64,000 nucleotides of DNA from Acidobacteriota bacterium (lineage in GTDB: Bacteria; Acidobacteriota; Vicinamibacteria; Vicinamibacterales; 2-12-FULL-66-21): positions 29,474-93,473 of the forward strand of contig JBKPCD010000132.1 in NCBI GenBank assembly GCA_046727175.1. Direction: 5' to 3'. Shown here in pieces: positions 5,163 through 62,407 of this stretch. The translations under genes were made by a program, and so were the position numbers. Under the pieces are notes generated by a model. That model was not told the origin of the DNA, made no database searches, and was given only the letters and a program-made list of their open reading frames with translations. Positions within the stretch are counted from its first letter, which is position 1. Every line of letters begins with the position of its first letter.

Positions 5163-5265
5163 GCAGATTGTAGATTGCTGGTTGCAGATTTCGGCATTGG
5201 TGGTGGATTGTGGATTCGTCTGCGAGTGCCGAGCAATGTGCAGTCTGCAATCTGCATTCGTCAAT
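5163..5265. repeat. Period-7 array pair, GATTGCA family (NNAGATT x8 then NNGCAAT x5)
   Basis: gcagatt gtagatt gctggtt gcagatt tcggcat tggtggt ggattgt ggattcg ... gagcaat gtgcagt ctgcaat ctgcatt cgtcaat. Lies between the Zn-ribbon gene start and the tRNA 3' end. Confidence 0.8.
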
Positions 5266-5269
5266 CGGG

Positions 5270-5345
5270 TGGTGGGCCCACCAGGATTCGAACCTGGGAC
5301 AGGCCGGTTATGAGCCGGCGGCTCTGACCGCTGAGCTATGGGCCC
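5270..5345 (-). tRNA. tRNA-Met (anticodon CAT), elongator type or Ile2-type
   Basis: 76 nt including CCA. Acceptor GGGCCCA/TGGGCCC, D arm GCTC-AGCGGTCA-GAGC, anticodon arm GCCGG-CTCATAA-CCGGC, T arm CCAGG-TTCGAAT-CCTGG. The paired 1-72 position and lack of three G-C pairs in the anticodon stem argue against an initiator. Confidence 0.9.
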
Positions 5346-5347
5346 CT

Positions 5348-5445
5348 AAAAAGGGACAAGGGAAAAGGGACAAAGGAAAACCGTTCGACTTCGCCCTTGG
5401 CCGTTTCAGCTTGCCTTTCCCTGCTCCCTTTTCCCTTTCCCTTTT
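5348..5445. repeat. Period-7 array pair, AAAAGGG / CCTTTTC family
   Basis: aaaaggg acaaggg aaaaggg acaaagg aaaaccg ... gcctttc cctgctc ccttttc cctttcc cttttct. Fills the tRNA-rpoD spacer up to the rpoD stop. Confidence 0.8.
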
Positions 5446-7161
<1,716 letters not shown>

Positions 7162-7177
7162 GCCCTCCTAAGACGCC

Positions 7178-7203
7178 GATTCGCACGGATTGGCGCGGAT
7201 CAG
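7178..7203. repeat. Copy 1 of a 23-26-nt dyad-like motif GATTCACGCGGATTTCGCGGATC
   Basis: GATTCGCACGGATTGGCGCGGATCAG, 17 nt upstream (opposite strand) of the rpoD ATG. 22 of 26 positions are identical to the copy at 21572..21597. Confidence 0.7.
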
Positions 7204-7377
7204 AGGAGATTCGACGATCGCCAACCCGCCTGACGCCCCGGCTTCCCCCCGCGCACAATACGCGTGGTAGGGCTCCGGTTCATCCCACGAATGAACGCGC
7301 AATGAATCCAAATCACCCAGCTTACGATCCGCACTCACCGATCCGCAACCCACCGCGCGACTATCCCTCATCCGCAA

Positions 7378-9150
7378 TCAGCAATTCAGAGATTCAATCT
7401 GCTGCAAGAGGGCCTTTTTCCGGTCCCAGAGCGCGATGATTTCGTGTTCGTGCCGATCCGCGCCCTGCTCCTGGAGCCGGTCGATTTCCCGTTGAACGGC
7501 GGCGCGCTCACGGTCGTACCGCAGACGTTTAAGCGTCCGAACGCAGTCGGCGGCAACCGAGGGGGGGTGGGTCTGCCGGCCGATCTCGTCGACCAGCGCA
7601 GCCTCTCCAGTACTTAGACGCTCGACGAGCGTCTGCGGTAAGGACGTTGCCGGCCATCCCTGCAGGGATCGCGCCTGCTCGATGATCGAACCAGTCGCCA
7701 GGCCCTCCGTGTCCCCGGCTTCGAGCTCGGCAAGCGCCGCCACACCCTCTTCCGGTGCCCGCATCAATGCCCAAATCAGTCCGCGCTCTGCCGGTTTCAC
7801 CTGACCGAGTCCAATGGCCCGTCGCTCGATGTCCGGCGTCGTAGTTTGACGCTGGACCGCGGCGCGCCTGATCTCCGCGCGTACTACCTCTTCTGTAATT
7901 CGTGCCTTGTGCGCCAGTCTGTCCGCAAATTGGTCACGTGCGGCCGCGTCCGGAATTCTTGCCGCGACCGTCAGCATCTGGCCCAGAAACTCTCGCCGGC
8001 CCTCGGGCAGACTCAAATCGTGCGCCGACGCCGTTCGATCGAGCAGGTATTCGAGCCACGGCTGCGATTCCCGGAGCCGCGCCTGATACTCGTTTCCCCC
8101 ACGTTTCCTGATGAAATTATCGGGATCGTCGCCCGGCGGCAGCATTGCCACGTTCACCTGAAAGCCTTCGGTCACCAGCAGCTCGGAAGATCGGGCCGCC
8201 GCTCCCTGCCCCGCCGCGTCGGGATCAAAACTGAGGACGACCTTCGTGGCAAAACGTTTCAGCAGGCGGACCTGGGCCGGCGTGAGGGCAGTTCCAGACG
8301 TGGCGACCACATTCGCAATCCCCGCCTGCCATGCCTGCGCGAAATCGAAGTAGCCTTCCACCATCACGGCATACTTCGCGCGGCCGATCGGCGTCTTGCT
8401 CAGGTGAAGCCCGTACAGGGTGCGACCCTTGACATAAATCGGTGTTTCGGGCGAATTCAGGTACTTCGGCTGCTGACTGGACTCCATGGCCCGGCCGCCA
8501 AATGCGACGATCGTGCCGTTGTCGCGGCAGATGGGGATCATCAGCCGCCCGCGGAAGCGATCGACGACGGTATCCTCATCGCGCTGTACCACGAGTCCGC
8601 TCCTGAGCAGGGTGTCAGGCGAGACCCCCTCGTTCGACAGCCTGGTCTTCAACCCTTCACGGATGGGTGGCGCATACCCGATTCCGAGGAGCTCGATCGT
8701 CGCCTTCGTCAGGCCGCGCTCCTCGAGCAGACGAACAGCCGGACCGCCCGCTCGGCTGTCCAGTTGTTCCCGAAACCACGCTGCCGCGACTTCGTGCACC
8801 TTCAGCAGCGTCTCACGTTCGTGTTGACTCTCCGCATCGTCACGCGAATTCCCTGTTTCGGGGACCGTCAGTCCTGCGCGCGCGGCGAGCAGCCTGACGG
8901 CTTCCGGGAACGATACCTTGTCGAACAACTCGACGAACTTGATCACGTCACCACCGACACCGCACCCGAAGCAATGAAAGAATCCCTTGTCTTCGTGGAC
9001 GATGAACGACGGCGTCTTCTCGCCGTGAAACGGGCAGAGCCCCTTCCACGCGGTTCCGCTCCGCCGCAGCGAGACACGCTCCTGAATGACCTGCACGATG
9101 CTCGCGTGCGACTTCAAGTCATCGATGAACGACGGAGGGAATAATGCCAT
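7378..9150 (-). CDS. dnaG: DNA primase
   Basis: Zinc finger CPFHGEKTPSFIVHEDKGFFHCFGCGVGGD and TOPRIM segment VMVEGYFD. Start set to ATG 9150 (MALFPPSFIDDLK); the 59 upstream codons are translation of a heptamer repeat. Confidence 0.93.
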   Translation of the reverse strand: MALFPPSFIDDLKSHASIVQVIQERVSLRRSGTAWKGLCPFHGEKTPSFIVHEDKGFFHCFGCGVGGDVIKFVELFDKVSFPEAVRLLAARAGLTVPETGNSRDDAESQHERETLLKVHEVAAAWFREQLDSRAGGPAVRLLEERGLTKATIELLGIGYAPPIREGLKTRLSNEGVSPDTLLRSGLVVQRDEDTVVDRFRGRLMIPICRDNGTIVAFGGRAMESSQQPKYLNSPETPIYVKGRTLYGLHLSKTPIGRAKYAVMVEGYFDFAQAWQAGIANVVATSGTALTPAQVRLLKRFATKVVLSFDPDAAGQGAAARSSELLVTEGFQVNVAMLPPGDDPDNFIRKRGGNEYQARLRESQPWLEYLLDRTASAHDLSLPEGRREFLGQMLTVAARIPDAAARDQFADRLAHKARITEEVVRAEIRRAAVQRQTTTPDIERRAIGLGQVKPAERGLIWALMRAPEEGVAALAELEAGDTEGLATGSIIEQARSLQGWPATSLPQTLVERLSTGEAALVDEIGRQTHPPSVAADCVRTLKRLRYDRERAAVQREIDRLQEQGADRHEHEIIALWDRKKALLQQIESLNC

Positions 9151-9156
9151 TACGTC

Positions 9157-9319
9157 GATTGACGATTGCAGATTGGAGATTGCGGATTGACGGATTGTTG
9201 ATTCTGATTGCAGATTGTCGATTGCGACTACTGACGTAGCGGCAGAATCAATATCCTCAATCTGCAATCCGTCAATCTGCAATCTGCAGTCCGTCAATCT
9301 GCAATCTGCAATCCGCAAT
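9157..9319. repeat. ~165-bp imperfect palindrome made of ~10 GATTGNN heptamers and ~10 NNCAATC heptamers
   Basis: gattgac gattgca gattgga gattgcg gattgac ggattgtt gattct gattgca gattgtc gattgcg - 16-nt centre - cagaatc ... ctcaatc tgcaatc cgtcaatc tgcaatc tgcagtc cgtcaatc tgcaatc tgcaatc cgcaat. Confidence 0.9.
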
Positions 9320-9323
9320 AAGT

Positions 9324-11864
9324 TCACTCTTTCAACTCGACCACCGTCACGCCACCGCCGCCTTGCTCGTCGGGGGCAGCCGAGAAATGCGCGACGAACG
9401 GGTGCGACTGGAGAAACGCGGTTATTCCCCGCCGAAGCTGACCTGTCCCGTAGCCGTGAATCAGTCTCACCGATCTGATTTCGGCGACGAGCGCATCGTC
9501 GAGGAACTTTTCCACGCGTCCGACCGCTTCGTCGACGCTGCAGCCTATGACATTCAATTCGGTGAGCGCTCCGTCGCGCGGCTGCAGCTCGACGTTGACC
9601 CGCACGCGCGCGGGCTGCGTGACGGCCGCTGCGGGAGTCACCACGCGAAGCTCGTCGACCCGCGCTCGCAATCGTTTTCCCCGGACGTCGACGTCCGCTT
9701 CGCGATCGTGGAGCGCCTGGATCGTGCCTTCGAGGCCGAATGTGCCGACGAACACGCGATCTCCGACGGCAGGTACGTGCCCGGCCTGGGCGGCCGCAGC
9801 CGGTTGTGGAGCTGCAGCCGTGTCGTCGGCTGCGCGCAGCCGCTCGCCGATGGCGTCGAGCGCCGCGCGGGCCTCGCTCCGCGCCGATCCGGTCTCGCCT
9901 GTCGGAATCAGGCGTGCCGCGCGACGCTCGGCATCGCTGGCCAGAGCCTGCGTCCGGGTCTTGAGCGCGTCTACAACCGCGTCGATCTCGCGTCGCGCGT
10001 CGCGGAGACGCTCTTCGATGCGCTCATCGAGCCTTCGACGGATCGTCTCTTCGCGGTTTCGGAGATCGTGCTCGCGCGCCTGCAGCTTGGCGGTCGCCTC
10101 TGCGAGCTCCTGGCGGTCGCGAGCCAGCAGTCGGCGCTCGTGATTGAGCGTGTGCATGTCGCGCTCGACCTTCGCGAGGTGCTCGGCAAGCTGTGACTCC
10201 CGCTCGCTGCGGTTCGCCCGCGCGCGTTCGATGATTGACGAGGGCAACCCGAGGCGGGTGGCGATCTCGAACGCAAGGCTGCTGCCCGGTGAGCCGTAGT
10301 TGAGGCGATACGTCGGCTCGAACGTCCGGGGATCGAAGCCGAATCCCGCGGACGTGACTCCTTCGCTGGTGGACGCATACGATTTCAGGGCGTCGTAATG
10401 TGTCGTCGCGACAACGAGCGCGCCACGCATCCGGAAGTGCTCGAGCAGCGACATGGCGAGCGCACCACCTTCGACCGGATCGGTGCCCGCACCTGCTTCA
10501 TCGAGGAGCACGAGCGCGGGGAGCGCAAGCGCGCGATCCATTGCGACGATGTTGGCGACGTGCGCCGAAAAGGTGCTGAGGCTCTCGGCGATCGACTGCT
10601 CGTCGCCGATGTCCGCAAACACAGAGCGGAAAACCGGGACCTGCGACCCTTCAGCCGCCGGGATGAAGAGCCCGGCCTGGGCCATGAGCGACAGCAGTCC
10701 TGCCGTCTTCAAGGCAACGGTTTTGCCGCCCGTGTTCGGCCCCGTGATCACGAGAACGCGGACCGGTGGGATCAAAAGAATGTCGACCGGTACGGGGCCG
10801 GTGTCCGGTAGGTCGGTGGTTCGGGGTTCGTTGTTGCCCGCTCGAGCCTCCGAGCTCGATGGTTCGCTCAGCCGCCGGCGCACCGCCGGAATGAGCAGCG
10901 GATGTCGCGCACCACGGAGCTCGAGGCGACCGTCCTTCGCGATTGCAGGCTTGACGCCGTCAATCAGCAACGAAAAATGCGCGCGGGCCTGCAGGACGTC
11001 GAGCTCGGTAGCGGCGTCCACGGTCCGCTGAAGGTCCAGCGCGCGACGACGGAACGCGTCGGAGAGCGCAAGCAGGATGCGGCGAACCTCTTCGGCTTCC
11101 TGTTCTTCCAAGGCCACGATGTCGTTGTTGATTTCGACGGTGCTGAGCGGCTCGAGGAACAGGCTTGCCCCACTGCCGGAGCTGCCATGGACGATACCCG
11201 GGATCGCGGCGCGATGCTCCGCACGGACAACGAGCACGTAGCGTCCGTTCCGGTCCGTGACGATCTGCTGCTGAAGGTACTTCGCCGTGTCTTTTCCGCG
11301 AAGGTACGATTCGAGCGTGCCTCGCAACCGCGCTCGCTGCTTACGAAGCCGCTCGCGGATCGATTTCAGCTCCGCGCTTGCATCGTCGACCACCTCGCCC
11401 GATTCGATCTTCCGGCGGACGTCGGCGATCTCTGCCTCGAACGACGCAGCCGAATCCGAGGTGACACGCAGCGTCGGAAACGCGCCGCGTGCGCGCCGAA
11501 TTGCCGCGCAAGTCGTGTCGATCGACGCGAGAAACGTCGCCAGCGCAGTGAGCTGTTGCGGATCGAGCGCCCGTCCTTCGACGGCGAGGGCGGTCAGAGT
11601 TGCTTCGAGATCGGAAGGTGCGTGAAGGCCGATTTCATTGTCGGCGAGGAATCGGACCATCTCGCCGGTGGTGTCGAGCGCGAGCGAAACGGCGCGCGCG
11701 TCCGTAAGCCAGGCGGTTCGCATGAGCCTCGACGCCCCAGGCGGCGTCTGCGCATATTGGCAGACGGCCTCGATGATCCGACTGAACTCGAGAGCCCTCA
11801 GGGCGCCGGATTGCATGGGACTGCTGACTGTGGTGAGCTTCTGGTCCGACAGGGCAATCGCCAA
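9324..11864 (-). CDS. mutS2: Endonuclease MutS2 (MutS domain V plus Smr)
   Basis: 846 aa. Walker A ITGPNTGGKTV, MutS ATPase core LLDEAGAGTDP and C-terminal Smr domain LIHGYGTGQLRRGI. The start could be the internal ATG (MQSGALRALEF). Confidence 0.9.
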   Translation of the reverse strand: MAIALSDQKLTTVSSPMQSGALRALEFSRIIEAVCQYAQTPPGASRLMRTAWLTDARAVSLALDTTGEMVRFLADNEIGLHAPSDLEATLTALAVEGRALDPQQLTALATFLASIDTTCAAIRRARGAFPTLRVTSDSAASFEAEIADVRRKIESGEVVDDASAELKSIRERLRKQRARLRGTLESYLRGKDTAKYLQQQIVTDRNGRYVLVVRAEHRAAIPGIVHGSSGSGASLFLEPLSTVEINNDIVALEEQEAEEVRRILLALSDAFRRRALDLQRTVDAATELDVLQARAHFSLLIDGVKPAIAKDGRLELRGARHPLLIPAVRRRLSEPSSSEARAGNNEPRTTDLPDTGPVPVDILLIPPVRVLVITGPNTGGKTVALKTAGLLSLMAQAGLFIPAAEGSQVPVFRSVFADIGDEQSIAESLSTFSAHVANIVAMDRALALPALVLLDEAGAGTDPVEGGALAMSLLEHFRMRGALVVATTHYDALKSYASTSEGVTSAGFGFDPRTFEPTYRLNYGSPGSSLAFEIATRLGLPSSIIERARANRSERESQLAEHLAKVERDMHTLNHERRLLARDRQELAEATAKLQAREHDLRNREETIRRRLDERIEERLRDARREIDAVVDALKTRTQALASDAERRAARLIPTGETGSARSEARAALDAIGERLRAADDTAAAPQPAAAAQAGHVPAVGDRVFVGTFGLEGTIQALHDREADVDVRGKRLRARVDELRVVTPAAAVTQPARVRVNVELQPRDGALTELNVIGCSVDEAVGRVEKFLDDALVAEIRSVRLIHGYGTGQLRRGITAFLQSHPFVAHFSAAPDEQGGGGVTVVELKE

Positions 11865-14291: not shown

Positions 14292-14298
14292 AAAGTCA

Positions 14299-14461
14299 GG
14301 CTTTGGGCTCAGGGGCTTTAAGCCTTGGGGCCTGCGGAGTACATCGCCGCTCCTCTCCAGACATGCGCAGAAGGGTTCCGGCCCGAGGCCCCGGCCTCCG
14401 GTCCCCGGCCGCCAGGCCGTCGGCCCCTGGCCCGGGGCCCCCGGGCCCCAGCCCCCGGACC
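14299..14461. repeat. Period-7 arrays, NNNNGGG x~5 then CCGGCCC-type x12
   Basis: ccggccc gaggccc cggcctc cggtccc cggccgc caggccg tcggccc ctggccc ggggccc ccgggcc ccagccc ccggacc (14378-14461), preceded by G-rich complement units. Lies in the GT2-gltA spacer. Confidence 0.8.
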
Positions 14462-14479
14462 CCTTGATATGATCCCCTC

Positions 14480-15619: not shown

Positions 15620-15642
15620 TGCGCTGGCGCGCGCGGCGGGCG

Positions 15643-15890
15643 TTCGGGCTCGGGATTCGGGGCTCGCCGTTCCATGGGCTCGCAATGTGCAAGTCGGTGT
15701 TTCGTCGCGCCAGGCTGCCCGCCGCGCCAATTCACCGGCGGGCGGCAAGACCGAAGGCCGTCGCGCGAAGCGCGTAAAGCGCGTGGGGTGGGGCCCCACG
15801 CGCATCAAAAAGAAGATGGCTATCGGCAGATCAGTAGCCTGCTGCGAATGAGCAGCATCGCCCCCCGAATCCCGAACCCCGAAGCCCGGG
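15643..15890. repeat. Inverted period-7 arms (TCGGGNN x3 / AANCCCG x4) enclosing ~190 bp
   Basis: ttcgggc tcgggat tcggggc (15643-15663) versus ccccccg aatcccg aaccccg aagcccg (15861-15888). Confidence 0.7.
15779..15815. repeat. Copy 1 of a 37-nt element: perfect 10-bp-stem hairpin plus A run
   Basis: GCGCGTGGGG-tgggg-CCCCACGCGC-atcaaaaagaag. A near-identical copy is at 26883..26919. Confidence 0.85.
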
Positions 15891-15924: not shown

Positions 15925-17727
<1,803 letters not shown>

Positions 17728-17795
17728 GGGAAGAAGGGGAAAAGGAAAGGGAAAAGGGAAAAGAGAAAAGGGACAAACCAAGGCCCAAAGCCCAA
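17728..17795. repeat. Single-arm purine-rich period-7 array (AAGGGAA family)
   Basis: gggaaga aggggaa aaggaaa gggaaaa gggaaaa gagaaaa gggacaa accaagg cccaaag cccaaag. Fills the lepA-lepB spacer. Confidence 0.7.
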
Positions 17796-17810
17796 AGTCT
17801 ACAGACGAGT

Positions 17811-18528: not shown

Positions 18529-18737
18529 GGAGGCGGAGGTCACGGACAAATCGCTTACCGCGGCGCCGCGGAGTTCACGGAGATTTGTTTTGTTCTTGGA
18601 CGCAAGTCGAGCTTGGTTCAGAGCTTCCGTTCAACGAGCATCACATCAACTCTGATGCCACGATTCCGGGACATTACAAAGAATCTCCGTGGGTCCGGTG
18701 GCTCCGCGGTGAGGCTTTTTCCGTGATCTCCGTCTCC
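18529..18737. repeat. ~210-bp element with ~57-bp terminal inverted repeats (MITE-like or long convergent-terminator hairpin)
   Basis: Left arm ggaggcggaggtcacggacaaatcgcttaccgcggcgccgcggagttcacggagatt (18529-18585). The right arm (18682-18737) is its imperfect reverse complement. The ~96-bp core is AT-richer. Confidence 0.8.
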
Positions 18738-18746
18738 TCCGGCTAA

Positions 18747-26828: not shown

Positions 26829-26882
26829 CAGGGTTCATCGCCTGCGGCCTCGGCGAGCCGAGCGCCAGCGAGTCGATCCGCA

Positions 26883-26919
26883 GCGCGTGGGGTGGGCCCC
26901 CACGCGCATCGAAAAAAAG
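26883..26919. repeat. Copy 2 of the 37-nt hairpin element
   Basis: GCGCGTGGGG-tgggc-CCCCACGCGC-atcgaaaaaaag, in the rpiB-glyA spacer. Confidence 0.85.
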
Positions 26920-27407: not shown

Positions 27408-27430
27408 GGCACATGAGATTATACAGGGAA

Positions 27431-27596
27431 GATGCTGACAGTGCTGATGGTGCTGGAAGTGCTGATGGTGCTGGAGGTGCTGACGGTGTCGAAGGGATAG
27501 CGCCTAGAGCAGCGCCAGCAGCTGGAGCACCGTCAGCACCTTTAGCACCGCCAGCACCTTTGGCACCCTTAAGCACCTCCAGCATCATTAGCACCT
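27431..27596. repeat. Period-9 array pair, GGTGCTGAN x7 then NCAGCACCN x8
   Basis: gatgctgac agtgctgat ggtgctgga agtgctgat ggtgctgga ggtgctgac ggtgtcgaa ... gagcaccgt cagcacctt tagcaccgc cagcacctt tggcaccct taagcacct ccagcatca ttagcacct. The inner 14 nt are perfectly complementary. Confidence 0.9.
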
Positions 27597-27601
27597 TCTT
27601 C

Positions 27602-39532: not shown

Positions 39533-39658
39533 GGACGGAGAACACGGAACAAGCGTTCACAGCAGAGTCACGAAGCACACGAAGGAAACCAAGTATTTCT
39601 CCGTGAATCTCGCGGCTCCGCGGTAAGAGCTTTTTCCATGCCCTCCGTCACTTCCGTC
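39533..39658. repeat. Second, shorter member of the 18529..18737 inverted-repeat family
   Basis: 39595-39658 (atttctccgtgaatctcgcggctccgcggtaagagctttttccatgccctccgtcacttccgtc) aligns at roughly 75-80 percent by eye with 18682-18737. The left arm ggacggagaacacggaacaagcg matches 18529-18553. Confidence 0.75.
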
Positions 39659-39664
39659 TGCCGC

Positions 39665-49115: not shown

Positions 49116-49116
49116 A

Positions 49117-49221
49117 TTGCTGACTGAGGATTGCTGATCGTGGATTGATGCCGTGGGTCAACGTACTCGCGGGTTCAACCAACGCGAAATCTCGAATCAG
49201 CAATTGAGAATCGACAATTCA
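49117..49221. repeat. Period-7 array pair, ATTGNTG x~6 / NNNNAAT x~5 (GATTG family)
   Basis: attgctg actgagg attgctg atcgtgg attgatg ccgtggg ... gcgaaat ctcgaat cagcaat tgagaat cgacaat. Lies in the divergent folC-accD spacer. Confidence 0.75.
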
Positions 49222-49265
49222 CGGTCCGCGGGTCGTTCGCGCGGACCTCATTGTAGAATTCGTCG

Positions 49266-50174: not shown

Positions 50175-50347
50175 ATCCCTAATCCCTGATCACTGATCGC
50201 GAATCGCTCATCCTCGGATCCTTGACTCCTGAATCCTCGGATTCTTGAATCGTACCGAGCCCCGAGCCCCGAGCCCCGAGCCCCGAGCCCCGAGCCCCGA
50301 GCCCCGAGCCCCGGCCCCGGTCTCCGGCCCCGGCCCCGGTCTCCGGC
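50175..50347. repeat. Three consecutive period-7 arrays including a perfect (GAGCCCC)x8 microsatellite
   Basis: ATCNNNN x11 (50175-50251), GAGCCCC x8 perfect (50257-50312), then GGCCCCGGTCTCC-type units to 50347. Fills the convergent accD/kinase spacer. Confidence 0.9.
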
Positions 50348-50355
50348 CCCGGCCG

Positions 50356-50991: not shown

Positions 50992-51168
50992 GACTCGTTG
51001 AAGTATACATTCTAAGAACCGTACTTAGTGTTCGCGGGGCCCCGCTCGCGGCGGCTCGACTCGCTCCGCTTCCGCCTTCGCGCGAGCGCTACGGCGAAAC
51101 CTCGACGAAGCTCAAAGAGCGAAGTCGGGCACTCGCCGCAGCCGCAGGCGCTGCGATAGCATTGTGCG

Positions 51169-52278: not shown

Positions 52279-54428
52279 TGCGCGGAAGTCGTTCGGGGTT
52301 CATTGGTATAGTGCTGGGCGGGACGTTGGCCGCGGCGTGCGCGAGCGCGCCGCCGGCAGCACCGCCGCCGGGCGCGACCGTACCGCTCCAGAAGAAGATG
52401 GCGTGGATGCTGCAACTCGAGGATCAACGCGTCCTCCGTCTTCCGCCACCTCCCCCTCCGGTCGAACCACCCGTCGCCCGGGGACGGCCCCGCGTTGCAC
52501 CGGCGCCGATACCACCTTCGTCGTCGGCCGATCTCACGGTGCTCGTCAAGGATGCCGATTCACGCGTGCGGCGACGCGCCGCGCTCGCGATCGGTCGCGT
52601 GGGCCTTTCCGAAGGCGTGCCGCCCCTCGTTGCAACGCTTGCCGATTCGGACCCCGACGTTCGGGGGATGGCGGCGTTTGGGCTCGGCCTGATTGGCGAT
52701 TCGTCTGCAGAACCGTCGCTCGTTCCGTTGCTCGCGGATCCAGCGCCACTCGTGCGCGGACGCGCCGCCGAGGCGCTCGGGCTCATCGGTGGGAGAGGCG
52801 CCGCCGCCGCAATAGGCCGCCTGGCTGGTGAATACGTGCGCAGCGCGCCCGTGACCGCGATGGAGCCGGATGATATGTCGTGGCCGGCTGCGCCAGAGGC
52901 GGAGGCATTCAAGCTTGCGGTATTCGCGCTCGTGCGGTTGAGTGCCTACGATCCGCTCGCGAGCGCCGTGCTCGACGGCACACGACCGCTCTCGATGTGG
53001 TGGCCGGTCGCGTATGCGCTGCAGCGCGTCGAGGACGCGCGCGCAGCACCCGCGCTGCTGGAGCTCCTGCAGGCGCCCGGAACGTACACGCGCGCGTTCG
53101 CGGCGCGCGGGCTCGGCGCATTGAAGCATGGTCCGGCGGCGAAGCCCCTCGCCGCGCTGCTCGATCCGAAGGCGAAGACGCCGCTCGAGGTGATGGTGGC
53201 AGCCATTCGCGCCGTCGCGCAGTTAGGAGACGGTTCAGCCAACGAGTCTCTTGCGACGTTGGCAGGCGATTCACGAGTTCAACCCAATGTCCGGCTCGAG
53301 GCGGTCAACGCCCTTGCCGTCCTGCACGCGACCGAGGGGCTGCCGATCGTGCAGGACTTGATGACCGACGACTGGCCGACCATGCGCGGGGCGGCGCTGC
53401 GAGCGGTCGCTGCGATCGATCGCGATGACTTCATTACCGTCCTGTCCGGACTCGAACCAGATCGCGACTGGCGTGTCCGTGCGGCGCTGGCCGACGTTCT
53501 TGCGACGCTGCCACCCGACATCGCGCTCGAGCGCGAGCGATCGATGCTCCAGGACGATGACAAGCGGGTGATCGTTGCGGTCCTCGGCGGGCTTGCGAAG
53601 CTCCACGCTCCCGATCTTGCAGCGATTCTGCTGGGACGTCTGAAGGATTCCGACTTCGCAGTCCGTGCGGCTGCGGCGCACCATCTCGGCCAGCTTAAGC
53701 CGGCAAATGCCGCGGAAGCGCTCCGAGAGGCGTATAGGGCAGGGCTGCCGGACGCGGCTTACTCGGCGCGCGCCGCGGCGATCGAGGCGCTCGCGGAGTA
53801 CGGCGCCGCCGAAGCGCGCGAGACGTTGAAGGCCGCGCTCGGCGACAAGGACTGGGCGATTCGGGTCCGTGCCGCTGAGCTCCTCACGAAGCTCGATCCG
53901 TCGACTGACGCCCGCACGATCATCCGGCCGGCGCCGGGTGATCCGCCCGCGCCGTACGATGATTCGCAACTCGCCGCGCCGGAGTTCTCGCCGCACGTGT
54001 TCATCGAGACGGCGAAGGGCACCATTGAAATCGAGCTTGCGGTCCTCGACGCCCCGCAGACCACACTCAATTTCATGACGCTCGTGCGGAAGGGCTTCTT
54101 CAATGGGCTGCAGGTCCCGCGCGTCGTGGTCAATTTCGTCGTCCAGGACGGCGATCCGCGCGGCGACGGTGACGGAGGGCCAGGCTACTCGATCCGCGAT
54201 GAGCTGAATCAGCGGCCGTATCTTCGCGGGACCGTCGGGATGGCGCTCGAGTCGTGGAGGGACACGGGCGGCAGTCAGTTCTTCATCACGCATTCACCAC
54301 AGCCGCATCTCGATGGGCGCTACACGGTTTTCGGCCACGTCATCAACGGCATGGAGGTGGTCGATCGGATTCAGCAGGGCGATGTGATCCAGCGTATCCG
54401 CGTGTGGGATGGAAAGTCGTGGCAGTAA
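52278..54428 (+). CDS. HEAT-repeat protein fused to a C-terminal cyclophilin-type peptidyl-prolyl isomerase
   Basis: 716 aa. Signal/lipoprotein-like N-terminus (GTLAAAC), many D..VR..AA.ALG HEAT-like units, and a C-terminal cyclophilin core FHRV-type region ...FVVQDGDPRGDGDGGPGY...GTVGMA...GSQFFIT....LDGRYTVFGHV. The start overlaps the menC stop (TAATG). Confidence 0.8.
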   Translation: MRGSRSGFIGIVLGGTLAAACASAPPAAPPPGATVPLQKKMAWMLQLEDQRVLRLPPPPPPVEPPVARGRPRVAPAPIPPSSSADLTVLVKDADSRVRRRAALAIGRVGLSEGVPPLVATLADSDPDVRGMAAFGLGLIGDSSAEPSLVPLLADPAPLVRGRAAEALGLIGGRGAAAAIGRLAGEYVRSAPVTAMEPDDMSWPAAPEAEAFKLAVFALVRLSAYDPLASAVLDGTRPLSMWWPVAYALQRVEDARAAPALLELLQAPGTYTRAFAARGLGALKHGPAAKPLAALLDPKAKTPLEVMVAAIRAVAQLGDGSANESLATLAGDSRVQPNVRLEAVNALAVLHATEGLPIVQDLMTDDWPTMRGAALRAVAAIDRDDFITVLSGLEPDRDWRVRAALADVLATLPPDIALERERSMLQDDDKRVIVAVLGGLAKLHAPDLAAILLGRLKDSDFAVRAAAAHHLGQLKPANAAEALREAYRAGLPDAAYSARAAAIEALAEYGAAEARETLKAALGDKDWAIRVRAAELLTKLDPSTDARTIIRPAPGDPPAPYDDSQLAAPEFSPHVFIETAKGTIEIELAVLDAPQTTLNFMTLVRKGFFNGLQVPRVVVNFVVQDGDPRGDGDGGPGYSIRDELNQRPYLRGTVGMALESWRDTGGSQFFITHSPQPHLDGRYTVFGHVINGMEVVDRIQQGDVIQRIRVWDGKSWQ

Positions 54429-54433
54429 AACAC

Positions 54434-54520
54434 AGAAGCTAGAATTCAGAGTGAGCACTCCCGCCGATCGGGATCATTTGGGAGGCTCACGGTCACTCTA
54501 GCTTCTAACTTCTCGCTTCT
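54434..54520. repeat. AGAAGNN-type imperfect palindrome plus three NNCTTCT heptamers
   Basis: agaagctaga (54434-54443) pairs perfectly with tctagcttct (54497-54506), and the inner gagtgagc/gctcac also pairs. Followed by aacttct cgcttct. Confidence 0.7.
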
Positions 54521-54540: not shown

Positions 54541-54568
54541 AAAAGGGGGCGACGGCCGCCCCCTTTTT
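54541..54568. terminator. Bidirectional intrinsic terminator
   Basis: AAAA-GGGGGCG-acggc-CGCCCCC-TTTTT: a 7-bp GC stem flanked by an A run and a T run. It sits between the convergent PPIase gene and micro-ORF 54585..54635. Confidence 0.8.
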
Positions 54569-54584
54569 CAGCGGGTGAAATGGC

Positions 54585-54635
54585 TCAGCGCTTCTTGCCG
54601 CCCTTCTTCTTCCCGCCCTTGGCCTTCTTCGCCAT
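54585..54635 (-). CDS. Micro-ORF encoding 16-aa polycationic peptide MAKKAKGGKKKGGKKR
   Basis: ATG preceded by AAGGGGGGG plus a 9-nt spacer. The TGA is followed 16 nt later by the 54541..54568 terminator. Its paralogue at 54894..54947 differs only by synonymous changes and one codon. Confidence 0.6.
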   Translation of the reverse strand: MAKKAKGGKKKGGKKR

Positions 54636-54843: not shown

Positions 54844-54876
54844 AAAAAAAAGGGGGTGTCAGCTCGCGACACCCCC
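54844..54876 (-). terminator. Intrinsic terminator after micro-ORF 54894..54947
   Basis: On the minus strand: GGGGGTGTC-gcgagct-GACACCCCC followed by TTTTTTTT. Confidence 0.8.
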
Positions 54877-54893
54877 GGACCGGCAGGCGGCTC

Positions 54894-54947
54894 TTAGCGT
54901 TTCTTCCCGCCCTTTTTCTTGCCGCCTTTCGCAGTCTTCTTCGCCAT
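54894..54947 (-). CDS. Micro-ORF encoding 17-aa polycationic peptide MAKKTAKGGKKKGGKKR
   Basis: Canonical AAGGAGG 4 nt before the ATG. It has its own sigma-70-like promoter and its own terminator, and is a paralogue of 54585..54635. Confidence 0.65.
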   Translation of the reverse strand: MAKKTAKGGKKKGGKKR

Positions 54948-59605: not shown

Positions 59606-59619
59606 ACCGCGTATTCGCG

Positions 59620-59642
59620 GATTCACGCAGATTTCGTGGATC
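59620..59642. repeat. Copy 3 of the GATTCACGCGGATTTCGCGGATC motif
   Basis: GATTCACGCAGATTTCGTGGATC, 15 nt after the yajC stop and 22 nt before the secD ATG. Confidence 0.7.
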
Positions 59643-59663
59643 CCGAAAACACGTGACCTCTGG

Positions 59664-61274
59664 ATGAAAGCGATGACCAAGAATCTCCGCTGGAAAGTGC
59701 TGACGATCGTCGTCGTCGGCATCGTCTTTTTCGCCGTCGGCATCTATCCCATTCTGGTGAATCGGTCTCACTTGCCGGCACCCGGCTGGCTGATGCAGAA
59801 GCAGCTCAAGCTGGGACTCGATCTCAAAGGCGGCGTCCACCTCGTGATGCGCGTGCAGACCGACGAAGCACTGAAGATTGCGACGACGACGACGAGCGAG
59901 CAGCTGAGAGAGGCGCTGCGGACGGCGGGTGTCACGGTGGGTGCGATTGCCGTGACGTCGCCGACCTCGTTCAAGGTGGAAGGCGTTCCGCCTGATCGTG
60001 ATAACGAGTTCCGTAAGGCGTCGGACGACGTCGCGAGCGCCAACTACAATCGCAGTCCGGGCGTCAGCGGGTCGTACGAGTTCACGATGAAGCCGAACGT
60101 TGCGAACGACATGCGCGAGCAGACAGTCGTGCAGGCGCTCGAAACGATCGATCGGCGCGTCAATGAACTCGGGGTGGCCGAACCCAACATCTCGCGATAC
60201 GGTCAGTCGAACGATCAGATTCTCGTCCAGCTGCCCGGGGTCACTGACGTGGCGCACGCGAAGGAGATCATGGGCAGGACCGCTCTCCTCGAGCTCAAGA
60301 TCGTCGAGAGCGGACCCGCCCCGACGAAAGAAGCCCTGCTCCAGTCGCACGGAGGACAGGTGCCTCCGGACATGGAAGTGATCACCGGCGCCGCCGGATC
60401 GCGTGCGGGCACCGAGTACTACCTCGTTCGCAAGGTGGCAGCCGTGACCGGACGCGATCTGCGTGATGCACGACCGGGGCTCGACGAGAACAACCGGCCC
60501 GCCGTCCGCTTCTCGCTCACGCCGGATGGGTCCCGCAAATTCGGCAAGGTGACCGGCGAGAACATCGGCCGGTCGCTCGCGATCATCCTCGACGGCTCCG
60601 TGCGTTCCGCGCCGCGGATTGACGGAAAGATTACCGACGAGGGGCGGATTTACGGCAGCTTCACGAGTGAAGAGGTCGCGGATCTGTCGCTGACGCTGCG
60701 GTCCGGCGCGCTGCCCGCCTCCCTCAGCAACCTCGAAGAACGAGTCATCGGTCCGACGCTTGGCGCTGACTCGATCCGGTCTGGCGTCATGGCTTCCGTC
60801 GTCGGTCTCGCGCTCGTCGTTGCCTTCATGCTCTTTTATTACAAGCTGTCGGGTGTCAACGCGATCATCGCGCTCATGATGAATCTCATCATCCTGCTCG
60901 GGCTGATGGCTTACATCGGCGCGACGATGACGCTGCCGGGCATCGCGGGGTTCGTGCTCACGATGGGCATCGGCGTCGATTCGAACGTGCTGATCTTCGA
61001 GCGCATCAAGGAGGAACTCGCCGGCCAGCGCGGAGTTCGTGCCGCGATCAACACCGGATTCTCGCGTGTGTTCTGGACGCTGCTCGATACGCACGTCGCC
61101 TCGCTGATTTCGGCCGCGTTCCTGTTCCAGTTCGGGACCGGGCCGATCCGCGGGTTCGCCATGACGCTGACGATCGGGCTGCTGACGAACCTGTTCACCT
61201 CGATTTTCGTGTCCAAGACGCTGTTCGAGCTGGAGCTTGCACAGCGGAAGACGGCGACGGCGCTCAGCATCTAA
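59664..61274 (+). CDS. secD: Protein translocase subunit SecD
   Basis: 536 aa with LKLGLDLKGG, periplasmic domain, and C-terminal six-TM region with GIGVDSNVLIFERIKEE. Confidence 0.95.
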   Translation: MKAMTKNLRWKVLTIVVVGIVFFAVGIYPILVNRSHLPAPGWLMQKQLKLGLDLKGGVHLVMRVQTDEALKIATTTTSEQLREALRTAGVTVGAIAVTSPTSFKVEGVPPDRDNEFRKASDDVASANYNRSPGVSGSYEFTMKPNVANDMREQTVVQALETIDRRVNELGVAEPNISRYGQSNDQILVQLPGVTDVAHAKEIMGRTALLELKIVESGPAPTKEALLQSHGGQVPPDMEVITGAAGSRAGTEYYLVRKVAAVTGRDLRDARPGLDENNRPAVRFSLTPDGSRKFGKVTGENIGRSLAIILDGSVRSAPRIDGKITDEGRIYGSFTSEEVADLSLTLRSGALPASLSNLEERVIGPTLGADSIRSGVMASVVGLALVVAFMLFYYKLSGVNAIIALMMNLIILLGLMAYIGATMTLPGIAGFVLTMGIGVDSNVLIFERIKEELAGQRGVRAAINTGFSRVFWTLLDTHVASLISAAFLFQFGTGPIRGFAMTLTIGLLTNLFTSIFVSKTLFELELAQRKTATALSI

Positions 61275-61286
61275 CGCAGGGACATC

Positions 61287-62279
61287 ATGCAGATCTTCCA
61301 CAACCCCAACTACGATTTCGTCCGGTGGCGCTGGCACGCCATCGCGCTGTCCTGGATCATCGTGCTCGCCGGGCTCGTCACGATCTGGCGAATGGGGATG
61401 CCGCTCGGCGTCGAGTTCTCGGGCGGCACGATCGTCATCGTGCGATTCGATCAGGTCGCGGACAACCAGCAGGTGCGCGCCGCCCTCGACAAGGGAATGC
61501 CGGGTGTCGGTCAGAACGCGGTCATCAACCGCTACGGTGATCCATCCGCTCGGCAGGTCATGATCCGTGTGCCGATGGTCGGCGCCGAAGCCGGTACGAG
61601 TCTCAGTCAGACGGCGGATGCCGTCATGTCGTCACTCAAGGCCGCCGGGTTGAAAGTGGAGGACAAACCGGTTGGAACCGAAATCGTGGGTCCGAGCGTT
61701 GGCGAGCAGCTCACGCGGCAGGGCACGCTCGCGACGGTGCTTGCGCTTGCGGGCATCCTCGTGTACATCGGCCTAAGGTTCCAGTTCAGCTTCGCGATCG
61801 GCGCCGTGGTCGCCACGATTCACGACCTGCTGGTCACGCTCGCGTTTCTGGCGTTCTTCCGCTACGACCTTTCGCTGAACGTCATCGCCGCGATTCTGAC
61901 CATCACCGGATACTCGACGAACGACACGATCGTCATCTTCGACCGCGTGCGCGAGAACATGAAGGGCATGCGGCGCGACAACATCTCGCACATCATCAAC
62001 GTCGCGGTCAACCAGACGTTGAGTCGAACCGTGATCACCGCGGGCACCGCGCTCCTGAGCTCGTTGGCGTTGTTCTTCTTCGGCGGCGAAGTCCTGCACG
62101 GATTTGCCTTCACCATGATCGTCGGGATCATCACAGGCACCTACTCCAGCGTGTTCATTGCCGCAGCGATCGTGGTGATCTGGCAGAGTCGCAAAGGCCC
62201 TGCGGGCGCCAGACGTCAGCCTGTCACCGAGGCGCCGCCGACAGCTGTGCGCAAGCCCGCTCGCCGGCGGGTGTCATAA
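61287..62279 (+). CDS. secF: Protein translocase subunit SecF
   Basis: 330 aa with GVEFSGGT, TGYSTNDTIVIFDRVREN and the six-TM topology. Confidence 0.95.
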   Translation: MQIFHNPNYDFVRWRWHAIALSWIIVLAGLVTIWRMGMPLGVEFSGGTIVIVRFDQVADNQQVRAALDKGMPGVGQNAVINRYGDPSARQVMIRVPMVGAEAGTSLSQTADAVMSSLKAAGLKVEDKPVGTEIVGPSVGEQLTRQGTLATVLALAGILVYIGLRFQFSFAIGAVVATIHDLLVTLAFLAFFRYDLSLNVIAAILTITGYSTNDTIVIFDRVRENMKGMRRDNISHIINVAVNQTLSRTVITAGTALLSSLALFFFGGEVLHGFAFTMIVGIITGTYSSVFIAAAIVVIWQSRKGPAGARRQPVTEAPPTAVRKPARRRVS

Positions 62280-62407
62280 ACGGTGCTAACGGTGTTGACG
62301 GTGCTGACGGTGCGTGAGATGTCGAGAGGGATACGAGTATTCGCTGCGGGCACGATCAGCCCTGTGAGCCGCTTCAGCACCTTCAGCACCACCAGCACCG
62401 TCAGCAC
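62280..62407. repeat. Second locus of the period-9 GGTGCTGAN family
   Basis: acggtgcta acggtgttg acggtgctg acggtgcgt ... cttcagcac cttcagcac caccagcac cgtcagcac. Starts 1 nt after the secF stop and ends 9 nt before the uppP ATG. Confidence 0.85.

Follow-up and report, generated by a model that had tools for sequence, protein, structure and literature searches.

Xanthomonas, cyanobacteria and Geobacter have previously been found to carry repeats of the kind described here. In Xanthomonas, degenerate (GGGANTN)n heptamer arrays occur at 186 loci, 70-75 of which are convergent inverted pairs (Rehm et al. 2015, PMC4692102), so that a preliminary description of our sequence, which knew of no account of such a succession of array and anti-array in a GC-rich, apparently acidobacterial genome, had been anticipated by that publication. 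Palindromic sites that consist of five heptanucleotide repeats are reported for Geobacter metallireducens (PMC2700814). More generally, the excess of heptanucleotide simple-sequence repeats (SSRs) in prokaryotes has been known since 2007 (Mrazek et al. 2007, as related in PMC4679880 and PMC4692102). Heptanucleotides are the commonest class of long SSR, for which polymerase slippage has been proposed (PMC4679880, PMC4692102), and mismatch repair acts poorly on loops larger than 3 nt (PMC4060949).

We analysed a stretch of 64,000 nucleotides, hereafter the window, which belongs to the metagenome-assembled genome of a soil acidobacterium of the order Vicinamibacterales. Its acidobacterial origin, surmised earlier, is borne out by LepA, whose nearest named relatives are Vicinamibacterales. 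Arrays were called with TRF and by direct reading of the sequence, and every array located in the preliminary description was recovered (Table 1). Lag-7 identity in intergenic DNA was 0.318, as compared with 0.269 in dinucleotide shuffles (z=10), and lags 14 (z=5.7) and 21 (z=3.6) were also in excess; coding DNA gave signals at multiples of 3 only. The excess of period 7 is restricted to spacers. In an ungapped scan of periods 4 to 12 at one threshold, period 7 accounted for 403 nt, 368 of them intergenic, period 9 for 142 nt and period 6 for 87 nt, and all other periods in this range for 0 nt. Most loci have a unit of 7 nt, a few one of 8-10 or 13 nt. The period had been called fixed; 7 is rather the mode, since TRF and the relatives also gave 8, 9, 10 and 13. 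At 49117, where a heptamer had been read, an array is indeed present (from 49116), but its true period is 14.

Of the 40 spacers that reach 30 nt, 16 (about 40%) hold arrays, as do 14 of the 32 that reach 80 nt; the arrays make up 1375 of 5717 nt of spacer DNA (24%). The statement that most spacers carry them was thus too strong. No arm is longer than 102 nt. Flanking genes have every kind of relative orientation, and the gap between array and start or stop codon was 0-7 nt at nine of ten junctions examined, the tenth having 16 nt, in keeping with the earlier remark that arrays abut these codons. The array at 59606 has relatives at 7174 and 63867 (TRF), the latter of period about 10 and newly detected. 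Tandem GGGAATC does not occur in the window, nor do tandems of CCCCAGT, TTGGTCA or CAACAGT, which we take to be the STRR units of cyanobacteria.

Table 1. Tandem arrays of the window. Positions are those of the window; "new" marks loci absent from the preliminary description.
Position	Array or pair of arrays	Context	Detection, fold or pairing
4320-4372	unpaired (GTGCCTG)x7	between RNase H-like gene 3867-4316 (-) and gene 4415-5155 (-)	TRF, sequence; new
5163-5267	GATTGNN 5163-5215; anti-array CAATCNN 5233-5267	adjoins tRNA-Met 5270-5345, minus strand	fold z=-3.3
5348-5446	(AAAGGGN)x4.5 5348-5380; (TTTCCCT)x4.6 5414-5446	tRNA-Met to rpoD stop codon	fold z=-8.3
7170-7377	weak, degenerate GGATTNG / GATCCGCA; second array at 7330	rpoD-dnaG spacer	TRF; pairing not significant; conserved in L082; new
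9157-9319	(GATTGNN)x10 9157-9226; (CAATCNN)x9 9253-9319	fills mutS2-dnaG spacer	fold z=-8.4
14297-14463	G-rich GGGSCNN 14297-14337; long CCGGCCC-type 14378-14463	upstream of citrate synthase	pairing marginal
15637-15888	(TCGGGNN)x3.7 15637-15662; (CCCGAAN)x3.7 15863-15888; arms 200 nt apart, enclosing other hairpins	citrate synthase-lepA spacer	fold z=-5.6
17728-17797	unpaired (GGGAAAA)x7, then (CCCAAAG)x3	immediately 3' of lepA stop codon	TRF
27428-27600	period 9, (GGTGCTGAN)x7; anti-array (AGCACCNNN)x11 from 27499	between divergent rpiB and SAM-methyltransferase genes	fold z=-12.1
34945-35009	unpaired 13-nt array, GGGACAGTCAATC x4.8	+ strand; 5' end of M20 peptidase gene	new
41797-41913	weak CGGGNNN 41797-41830; (CCCGGNN)x5.5 41874-41913		TRF, scan; pairing not significant
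49116-49222	ATTGCTGA-type, period 14, 49116-49147; TCAGCAAT-type partner 49190-49222	divergent Mur ligase / accD spacer	pairing marginal
50175-50354	adjacent unpaired (ATCNNNN)x11 and, from 50255, (CGAGCCC)x8 + (CGGCCC...)	fill convergent spacer	fold z=+0.6
54434-54520	short AGAAGCT-type; anti-array TCTNNCT at 54497	3' region of gene 52311-54428	pairing marginal
59606-59650	period 9-10, GCGGATTC-type	between yajC and secD	direct reading; new
62280-62411	period 9, (ACGGTGCTG)x3.9; anti-array (CAGCACCNN)x4.4 at 62372	fills secF-bacA spacer	fold z=-5.5

That an array is followed by its complement, as first described, holds at ten or eleven loci (about two thirds) and robustly at six of them, but not for seven arrays without a partner. 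When compared with 200 shuffles, pairing exceeded all of them at 5163, 5348, 9157, 15637, 27428 and 62280, was marginal at 14378, 49116 and 54497, and was not significant at 41874 and 7170. The arms, 4-200 nt apart, are only 72-85% complementary, and several pairing registers are possible. Folding of the best pairs gives hairpins that are long but imperfect (z -5 to -12), and no folding of the unpaired arrays was detected in the fold test. Copy number and higher-order periods (18 and 22 nt) are particular to each arm. The G-richer array comes first in all 20 pairs of the window and its relatives. Such a strict polarity suggests that the mechanism is directional or that selection acts.

Copy number was compared among metagenome assemblies of close strains, the differences being those of assemblies and not of reads. 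Strain L100 differs from the window by 8 substitutions in 16,513 nt (99.95% identity), and its sole indel is a gain of 7 nt at 9294, in the right arm of the 9157 locus, where L082 has gained 7 nt in each arm. Relative to the window, L088 has lost 7 nt at 17746 and 18 nt at 27440; the other indels recorded were +21 in L089, +9 in L082 (besides its two of +7), and -14 in L084. All unit-step indels lie inside locally perfect sub-runs of the arrays. Each arm changes copy number separately from its partner, and the left arm of the 27428 locus has 5 units in L088, 7 in the window and 8 in L082. The spacer 3' of lepA, which holds the 17728 array, measures 76/77, 83/84 or 104 nt in near-identical strains (and 97 nt in one contig, from gene coordinates without DNA), the 77-nt and 84-nt lepA-lepB alleles each being present in several samples. 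Strains 0.2% apart can differ in having or lacking an entire hairpin: over 10.3 kb, L090 and L091 show 99.78% identity and a single indel, a 146-nt array and anti-array, the short allele of L091 being a 19-nt quasi-palindrome of one unit and one anti-unit. Gain and loss of whole units is the signature of slipped-strand mispairing; slippage, one of the generating mechanisms suggested at the outset, is thus supported by these steps.

Among lineages, the unit itself is replaced. The citrate synthase-lepA spacer contains an array pair in five lineages, each with a different unit: TCGGGNN in the window, ACCGAGCC in L082, TTCGGGA/ACCGAGC in L097, AAGGTGCC in L090 and TAGGCTC/GAGCCCA in L099. No array was found in this spacer in L002 and L003. 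Units are swapped between lineages merely 1-6% apart in LepA protein sequence. The constant architecture with variable unit noted earlier among loci is therefore also a property of the relatives' orthologous spacers. At the 14297 locus, L082 has TCGGGGT/CCCCGAA arrays instead, which enclose a nested CAGGAGA/TCTCCTG pair. Between mutS2 and dnaG, where the window has a 173-nt hairpin, relatives at 94-96% have an uninterrupted operon junction with a spacer of 0-10 nt, so that this hairpin did not grow from an older spacer. Spacers of distant relatives are short and free of arrays. Per 10 kb, the coverage by period-7 arrays was 47.5 nt for close relatives, as against 9.1 nt for other Acidobacteriota and 1.9 nt for 59 further genomes, as sampled around the same gene. 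The lineage carries other small dispersed elements as well.

Because the arrays change by unit steps, come and go as whole hairpins and turn over in unit between strains and lineages, we regard them as hypermutable microsatellites remodelled by slippage, that is, probably as long simple-sequence repeats, with a 7-nt unit at most loci, in the non-coding spacers of Vicinamibacterales. The most fitting view is that they are structural filler which evolves fast and is tolerated between genes, and not conserved regulatory sequence. Unit-sized loops would escape mismatch repair, 7 nt being presumably a slippage-prone length, as has been published for heptanucleotide SSRs in general. The arrays may originate from small intergenic hairpins, of which the quasi-palindrome of L091 would be an example, and (AAAAGGG)n...(CCCTTTT)n could be viewed as an amplified terminator of the form A-tract/G-stem...C-stem/T-tract. 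Slippage alone makes no complementary arm and leaves the one-step 146-nt difference unexplained; the second arm may come from fold-back template switching, or from parallel growth of both halves of a stem. With the G-richer array followed by its complement, either DNA strand, or RNA from either, would fold, into a predicted stem of 5-6-bp helices broken by small internal loops. If they have a role, for example in preventing read-through or shielding the ends of transcripts, it would belong to hairpins in general and not to a particular unit.

It is rather unlikely, in our view, that slippage supplies variation only and that the hairpins are selected RNA or DNA structures (bidirectional terminators without a U-tract, insulators or stabilisers of 3' ends). 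Under such selection the polarity could mean, for instance, that a C-rich, Rho-loading arm is never single-stranded in RNA before its partner is made. The folds of the best pairs are very stable (z -5.5 to -12), both arms are similar in length, the G-first order is missing from non-array spacers and shared by the two canonical terminators of the window, one spacer has an array pair in five lineages, and the Xanthomonas repeats are mostly transcribed and have the same positional preference (PMC4692102). However, neither the sequence nor even the presence of arrays is conserved among strains and close relatives, seven arrays are unpaired and unstructured, and one hairpin interrupts the mutS2-dnaG junction. 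Moreover, no strand bias in G.U pairing toward the transcribed strand was detected, neither strand being favoured, and arrays in the window do not coincide with consensus terminators: the canonical one at 54541-54570 is separate from, and downstream of, the 54434 hairpin. G-quadruplex or i-motif regulation, as proposed for Xanthomonas GGGAATC and Nostoc GGGGAYT, seems to us improbable. Such repeats form quadruplexes in vitro (PMC4692102), and G3-4 tracts recur every 7 nt on one strand in GGGAAAA (5348, 17728) and TCGGGNN (15637), and on the minus strand in GGGGCTC (50255) and GGGGCCN (14378); but about half of the arrays (GATTGNN, GGTGCTGAN, ATTGCTGA, AGAAGCT, ATCNNNN, GTGCCTG) have no G-tract, and four units are not favoured among the copy numbers.

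Links between loci suggest copying, and raise the question of small non-autonomous mobile or dispersed elements (REPIN- or MITE-like) that would move between spacers and then drift by slippage. Cross-scores showed unit families recurring within the window (GATTG at 3 loci, CCCCGR at 4-5, GGGAAAA at 2, GGTGCTGA at 2, GGATTC at 4), and some arms had a better match in a partner from another locus than in their own partner. The 27428 and 62280 arrays belong to one unit family and have in common, next to the left arm and outside the array, a 12-13-nt motif, GTCGA(G)AGGGATA, for which 0 matches are expected by chance; the GATTG loci share the rare CAGTC unit and 8-nt units. The 146-nt presence/absence difference, the hairpin at a junction spacerless in relatives and the lineage's other dispersed elements fit this reading too. 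We nevertheless think it unlikely, as there are no common termini or target-site duplications, the L091 allele retains one unit and one anti-unit instead of a clean empty site, the GATTG and AAAGGG loci have unrelated loops, and units differ wholly in relatives 1-6% apart in LepA. The window contains no transposase or RAYT gene, 49 of 49 genes of the working gene model being housekeeping or without Pfam match, and no evidence was found for the repeat-writing enzyme once suggested. A coding origin of the 9-nt arrays, as Gly/Ala/Asp-rich N-terminal extensions of downstream proteins, is very improbable even though ORF 27413-28762 covers both arms in frame with the methyltransferase and changes of 9 and 18 nt preserve the frame: a codon-usage model places the gene start after the arrays, gene calls in relatives begin at an ATG after the array, the right arm in L088 has a 1-nt deletion, the sister locus 62280 is situated between one gene's stop codon and the start of the next, and a coding repeat that includes its own anti-array in the same frame would be strange. 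Finally, all data are metagenome assemblies, in which tandem repeats are error-prone, but we hardly believe in assembly or polishing artefacts, either for the arrays or for their copy-number differences, because identical arrays were recovered from NCBI, JGI and ENA across independent samples and assemblers (that of 62280 in an independent JGI contig), each arm is at most 102 nt, and variants such as the two lepA-lepB alleles are common to several contigs.

Compared with known systems, REP, BIME and REPIN sequences are likewise intergenic, hairpin-forming and dispersed in families, a REPIN being two inverted copies in a hairpin, and REP itself a conserved palindromic unit of 20-40 nt mobilised by RAYT (PMC3116915, PMC2817692). 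In the window, by contrast, the arms are 7-nt tandem arrays, the loops are mostly unrelated and RAYT is missing. The TAACTGA direct repeats of Beggiatoaceae are intergenic heptamers that come to within a few nucleotides of start codons, but they have a single unit, are oriented by the downstream gene and form inverted pairs in 1 of 170 sets (PMC4679880). In Geobacter metallireducens, four or five tandem heptanucleotides occur at dozens of loci and one class is drawn as a strand-switching palindrome; unlike ours, these classes have a fixed consensus (GGACCGG, MTYCTGA) and copy number, and they are read as regulator binding sites or RNA elements, with no report of strain polymorphism (PMC2700814). 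As summarised in PMC4692102, the STRR of Calothrix and Nostoc resemble our arrays in being tandem, intergenic and of several heptamer families per genome, and differ in phylum, in base composition and in the few inverted pairs reported in Nostoc.

Long prokaryotic SSRs, as summarised from the surveys, share the unit range (5-11 nt, mode 7) and intergenic enrichment (PMC4679880, PMC4692102, PMC4060949) and the proposed origin by polymerase slippage, with loops that escape mismatch repair (Huang & Mrazek 2014, PMC4060949); in those surveys, pairing of array and anti-array, polarity and strain-level turnover are not described, and Vicinamibacteria are unsampled. Closest are the GGGAATC repeats of Xanthomonas, also degenerate heptamers of a GC-rich genome with a conserved core and one or two variable positions, intergenic and no more than 50 bp away from a start or stop codon, with 2-26 units and extensive variation in length and sequence between close species (PMC4692102). 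Their convergent inverted pairs (70-75 loci per genome) lie on opposite strands and, to judge from the wording of the paper, are also G-first (PMC4692102). Xanthomonas has one dominant G-tract unit with a four-unit preference consistent with G-quadruplexes (PMC4692102), whereas in the window there are six or more unit families, of which half lack G-tracts, and also units of 8-10 nt. Finally, the Xanthomonas loci for the most part keep their position from species to species, whereas here arrays appear, vanish or are replaced between strains.

TRF recovered the arrays of the preliminary description where it had placed them, together with a few unlisted ones, with periods of 7, 9, 10 and 13 nt and 2.7 to 14 copies, so that head-to-tail units of 5-11 nt in at least three copies are indeed present. 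Intergenic identity at lag 7 was 0.318 versus 0.269 in dinucleotide-preserving shuffles (z=10), and the signal was repeated more weakly at lag 14 (z=5.7) and at lag 21 (z=3.6). Coding DNA was periodic at multiples of three only and gave no lag-7 signal. An ungapped scan of periods 4 to 12 at a single threshold yielded 403 nt for period 7, of which 368 were intergenic, 142 nt for period 9, 87 nt for period 6, and nothing for the other periods. By lag-7 identity and by this intergenic share alike, long SSRs are enriched above chance in non-coding DNA. With coding stretches taken out, the window has 40 spacers that reach 30 nt, with 5717 nt in total. Arrays were found in 16 of them (14 of the 32 that reach 80 nt) and covered 24% of spacer DNA; the initial count of at least 14 spacers is therefore correct, and the wording "most spacers" is not. 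Nor is the period fixed: 7 nt is the mode, and periods of 8, 9, 10 and 13 nt occur in the window and its relatives. All gene orientations host arrays, which do lie as close to start and stop codons as first described, at 0-7 nt in nine of ten junctions checked and at 16 nt in the tenth. They are not assembly artefacts, as identical sequences recur across independent samples and assemblers.

The window has a G+C content of 63.6%, and its LepA is exactly encoded also on contig JBKPUF010000416.1 of the NCBI MAG GCA_046735855.1. Because the nearest named LepA relatives are Vicinamibacterales (86% identity in a species-representative genome collection, 93% to a named protein), the source had rightly been called acidobacterial. 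The gene map, built with a codon-usage gene model and cross-checked with Pfam, is that of a core housekeeping neighbourhood: rpoD, dnaG, mutS2, purE, citrate synthase, lepA, lepB and SHMT are among the genes, as are rpiB, thiC, a clpB-like gene, accD, tgt-yajC-secDF and bacA. Beyond one RNase H-like gene, no transposase or reverse transcriptase appeared in the window gene model, and Pfam, run on 30 window genes and complemented by the annotations of relatives, returned housekeeping genes only and no mobile-element gene. The tRNA-Met gene has an array/anti-array hairpin on either side. At many genes a TATAAT-like box precedes the start, without a Shine-Dalgarno sequence (see table), which suggests that their mRNAs may be leaderless or have very short leaders. 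Several anti-arrays end immediately upstream of such boxes.

The reverse complement of each array was compared with the remainder of its own spacer, against 200 shuffles. Pairing exceeded all 200 at six loci (5163, 5348, 9157, 15637, 27428 and 62280), was marginal at three (14378, 49116 and 54497) and was not significant at two (41874 and 7170); for seven further arrays no partner was found in the spacer. A complementary partner, which had been described for most loci, is robust at six of them. Arm complementarity is 72-85%, in several about equally good registers, and the variable positions of the two arms barely co-vary. For these reasons we reject the view of the arms as exact mirror copies; what is complementary is the unit of each array. 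Folding of the best pairs is far more stable than that of shuffles (z=-12.1, -8.4, -8.3, -5.6 and -5.5), which is not the case for unpaired arrays or ordinary spacers.

All pairs are oriented in the same way. In 11 of 11 window pairs and in 9 of 9 further pairs from relatives, the C-rich arm follows an arm of positive G-C skew, and the C-first topology was never seen among these 20. The rule holds on both strands because the arrangement is its own reverse complement. No such skew is found in non-array spacers (9 positive, 15 negative). The unpaired 17728 locus is likewise ordered, (GGGAAAA)n and then (CCCAAAG)n, and both canonical terminators found in the window have the same polarity. Several units recur in the window, namely GATTG at 3 loci, CCCCGR at 4-5, GGGAAAA at 2, GGTGCTGA at 2 and GGATTC at 4, and some arms match partners from other loci as well as or better than their own. 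The two 9-nt loci (27428 and 62280) have GTCGA(G)AGGGATA in common beside the left arm, with no match expected by chance; this 12-13 nt motif is the sole one, no significant loop homology being seen at the GATTG or AAAGGG loci. Taken together, these resemblances hint at some copying between loci.

Relatives, collected as a graded series from a LepA search, were compared with the window contig by contig. L100, from another assembly of the same population, has 8 substitutions relative to it over 16,513 nt and a single indel, an additional 7 nt in the CAATCTG anti-array at position 9294. Among near-identical strains the lepA-lepB spacer measures 76/77, 83/84 or 104 nt, purely by the number of GGGAAAA units, and gene coordinates give 97 nt in one further contig. 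In L082, a contig 97.9% identical to the window, each arm of the 9157 hairpin has gained one unit, at non-mirror positions, and the period-9 array has gained 9 nt; the latter array is 18 nt shorter in L088, and a CCCCGAR array is 14 nt shorter in L084. Whole-unit copy-number changes (+7, -7, +21, -14, +9 and -18 nt) thus separate assemblies that are 97.9-99.95% identical. Every one of these events sits in a locally perfect sub-run, as slipped-strand mispairing predicts, and slippage, one of the generators proposed initially, is supported by such steps.

Larger changes were also observed. Over 10.3 kb, the contigs L090 and L091 reach 99.78% identity. One indel separates them: L091 lacks the 146-nt hairpin (AAGGTGCC)n...(GGCACCTT)n that L090 has in the spacer between citrate synthase and lepA, and its short allele, CAAAGTGCCAGGCCCTTTG, is quasi-palindromic, with one unit and one anti-unit. 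In this spacer the unit differs in each of five lineages (see table). Where a 173-nt hairpin fills the mutS2-dnaG spacer of the window, L090, L098 and L099 have only 0-10 nt between the two genes. Like the window, L082 and L099 are rich in arrays, and L098 and L002 are poor in them. Two L082 spacers are non-homologous to those of the window despite 98% overall identity, one of them containing a nested pair within an outer pair. The comparison of orthologous spacers hence revealed both unit turnover and copy-number variation.

Features of the window and of related contigs (LepA identities are to the window)
Feature	Contig	Position (strand)	Unit or remark
Citrate synthase-lepA spacer	window		TCGGGNN / CCCGAAN
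Citrate synthase-lepA spacer	L082		ACCGAGCC; LepA identity 99%
Citrate synthase-lepA spacer	L097		TTCGGGA / ACCGAGC; LepA identity 97%
Citrate synthase-lepA spacer	L090		AAGGTGCC / GGCACCTT; LepA identity 96%
Citrate synthase-lepA spacer	L099		TAGGCTC / GAGCCCA; LepA identity 94%
Citrate synthase-lepA spacer	L002, L003		short spacers without array; LepA identity 86%, 81%
LepA gene	window	15925-17727	
tRNA-Met (CAT)	window	5270-5345 (-)	
Hairpins beside tRNA-Met	window	5163-5267; 5348-5446	
Genes with TATAAT-like box	window	starts 14480, 15925, 27407 (-), 32615, 49266, 51169	box 6-20 nt upstream of start
Trivial terminator hit	window	17781-17793	5 bp, in array
Canonical terminators	window	54541-54570; 54850-54878	A-run/G-stem + C-stem/T-run
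Tiny paralogous ORFs	window	54585-54635 (-); 54894-54947 (-)	MAKKAKGGKKKGGKKR; MAKKTAKGGKKKGGKKR
TRF period-15 "array"	window	54591-54627	coding repeat
Dispersed hairpin	window	15779-15803; 26883-26907	GCGCGTGGGGTGGGGCCCCACGCGC, CGCGAAGCGCGTAAAGCGC ahead
~65-nt element	window	18682-18746; 39596-39664	…CTCCGTG…CTCCGCGGTRAGRGCTTTTTCCRTG…CTCCGTC…
~65-nt element	window	18554-18713	within 32-nt inverted repeat
59-nt insertion	L082, L084	window position 26858	reverse complement of ~51040-51130 (spacer 50992-51168)
Spurious public ORFs	L082	21567-21689	over period-9 array
Spurious public ORFs	L088	12361-12885; 12955-13053	over period-9 array
Long ORFs through arrays	window	7378-9327 (-); 27413-28762 (+)	
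27-nt coding repeats	L009	2269-2570	CTTCTTTGCTGCCTTCTT…
27-nt coding repeats	L010	3410-3503	CTTCTTTGCTGCCTTCTT…

Other small elements lie nearby. Two paralogous tiny ORFs encode Lys/Gly-rich peptides, each with a canonical terminator-type hairpin downstream on its strand, and a period-15 TRF call is the coding repeat of one of them. The dispersed hairpin GCGCGTGGGGTGGGGCCCCACGCGC occurs twice in the window (0 expected by chance) and, in relatives, in a different spacer and in inverted orientation (the lepA-lepB spacers of L090 and L098); in appearance it is REP-like, and separate from the arrays. An element of about 65 nt is common to two convergent spacers and is kept in L082 and L088. The 59-nt insertion found in the SHMT-rpiB spacer of L082 and L084, both 99% relatives, is the reverse complement of sequence in another window spacer, and a small dispersed or mobile element seems to be active in the lineage. 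Near lepA, the Terriglobia relatives L009 and L010 carry 27-nt coding repeats that are Lys/Ala-rich on the opposite strand; these look like a histone-like or basic repeat protein and not like a non-coding array. Public ORFs of 32-174 aa are called over period-9 arrays in relatives, and long ORFs run through arrays in the window; we rejected a coding reading of the 9-nt arrays.

The comparisons show that arrays gain and lose whole units, that the two arms change independently, that a whole hairpin can be present or absent, and that units are rapidly replaced. The probable mechanism is slippage during replication, on units whose length lets them escape mismatch repair (PMC4060949); 7 nt would be the length most favoured, as Mrazek et al. 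proposed (cited in PMC4679880 and PMC4692102). Seeding would occur from small intergenic hairpins, as inferred from the short L091 allele and from the (AAAAGGG)n...(CCCTTTT)n pair at 5348-5446, which resembles a terminator, and the second arm would arise by fold-back copying or parallel growth. The hints of copying between loci do not make a case for a mobile element: neither termini nor target duplications nor a transposase gene was found at the loci or in the window. For the polarity, two candidates may be put forward: template switching by fold-back, with a preference for a G-rich nascent strand, or selection against a C-rich, Rho-loading RNA arm exposed before its partner is transcribed.

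Against a sequence-specific function stand the lack of conservation among close relatives, the occurrence in every gene orientation and the absence of structure in unpaired arrays. As a test for RNA-level selection, folding energy and G.U counts of the two strands were compared, and neither was consistently biased toward the transcribed strand. Arrays as intrinsic terminators, that is, short GC-rich stem-loops with a U-tract, are rejected: consensus promoter and terminator scans of the window gave counts not above shuffles and no coincidence with arrays except for one trivial 5-bp terminator hit, and the canonical examples lie elsewhere. In Rfam only tRNA-Met passed the gathering score; at E<0.5 the arrays gave sub-threshold matches to generic miRNA-precursor hairpin models, which are noise, and no family. 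The literature on intrastrand triplexes (PMC4666352) proved not relevant. A generic hairpin role may still exist, its best arguments being the polarity and the balanced arms. Instead of passive microsatellites, the arrays might be the product of a directional, lineage-specific process that builds G-first palindromic repeat hairpins at gene junctions, by fold-back template switching of a G-rich nascent strand or through a small mobile element, and that inserts or replaces them whole between strains less than 1% apart; the hairpins would then act as insulators irrespective of orientation, in a genome with many leaderless genes. We regard this scenario as improbable.

Around lepA, the close clade has 47.5 nt of period-7 arrays per 10 kb, 18 loci from other Acidobacteriota have 9.1, and 59 further genomes have 1.9. 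Clear array pairs were likewise found in Terracidiphilus, Sulfotelmatobacter, a Nitrospira and one gammaproteobacterium of high GC content. A metagenome scan for (GATTGNN)4 returned 20 high-GC contigs with real arrays, six of them with strict partners, all GATTG-first. Most matches (among L101-L220) were low-GC rumen-type contigs, with (GGGGATT)n ends or with (GGGGATT)n head to head with (AATCCCC)n; these resemble telomeres of eukaryotes (ciliate-like) and assembly joins between two telomeres, and are unrelated to the arrays.

Heptanucleotide repeats are the commonest long microsatellites of bacteria. In this uncultured soil lineage, many metagenome assemblies at graded divergence make repeat dynamics unusually clear: single-unit steps are the sole indels of near-identical genomes, a hairpin is present or absent, the unit is replaced in five lineages, and G-first order is strict. 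The lineage is therefore a useful natural system for slippage and template-switch models. On the practical side, array spacers will break assemblies, attract spurious ORFs (calls of 40 and 174 aa in relatives) and, given the sub-threshold miRNA-precursor matches, will be mistaken for structured RNAs.

Compared with known systems, the arrays are not cyanobacterial STRRs. Those belong to heterocystous cyanobacteria, with the consensus heptamers CCCCAGT, TTGGTCA and CAACAGT, none of which is found in tandem in this Vicinamibacterales window. Unlike REP/REPIN, whose conserved palindromic unit is common to many loci, units differ here and similarity is at the family level only; no RAYT (Y1 transposase) gene is among the genes of these 64 kb. 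Nor are they MITEs, with terminal inverted repeats, a target-site duplication and a clean empty site: in the sole presence/absence case (L090 versus L091), one unit and one anti-unit are left and there is no duplication. Further kin are the heptanucleotide SSR excess in prokaryotes, cyanobacterial STRRs, heptanucleotide palindromic sites of Geobacter (PMC2700814) and TAACTGA repeats of Beggiatoaceae (PMC4679880); no published unit occurs in tandem in the window, and the papers searched contained no report of such repeats for Acidobacteria or Vicinamibacteria.

The closest published case is the GGGAATC class of Xanthomonas, degenerate heptamers of 2-26 units with strong length variation, which form 70-75 convergent inverted pairs per genome near start and stop codons (PMC4692102). 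The architecture, presented at first as undescribed for a GC-rich, apparently acidobacterial genome, had already been described in another GC-rich genus. Inverted pairs near starts and stops are likewise seen here, at 10-11 paired loci, all G-first. In Xanthomonas the pairs are "convergent" (Rehm et al., PMC4692102), and G-rich arrays are on the sense strand where they follow a stop codon and on the antisense strand where they precede a start; this rule appears to be the same as the polarity observed here. In contrast, the GGGNATC/GGGANTN unit with a G-tract in each copy is not found (no GGGAATC tandem in the window, and tracts of three or more G in only about half of the arrays), nor is the four-unit preference, copies ranging from 3 to 14 without a mode at 4. 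The arrays further differ from known systems by several unit families per genome, half of them without G-tracts, by 8-10-nt units of like build, and by a very fast strain-level turnover, as documented by metagenomes. The window arrays belong to a known repeat class, here in a little-studied phylum.
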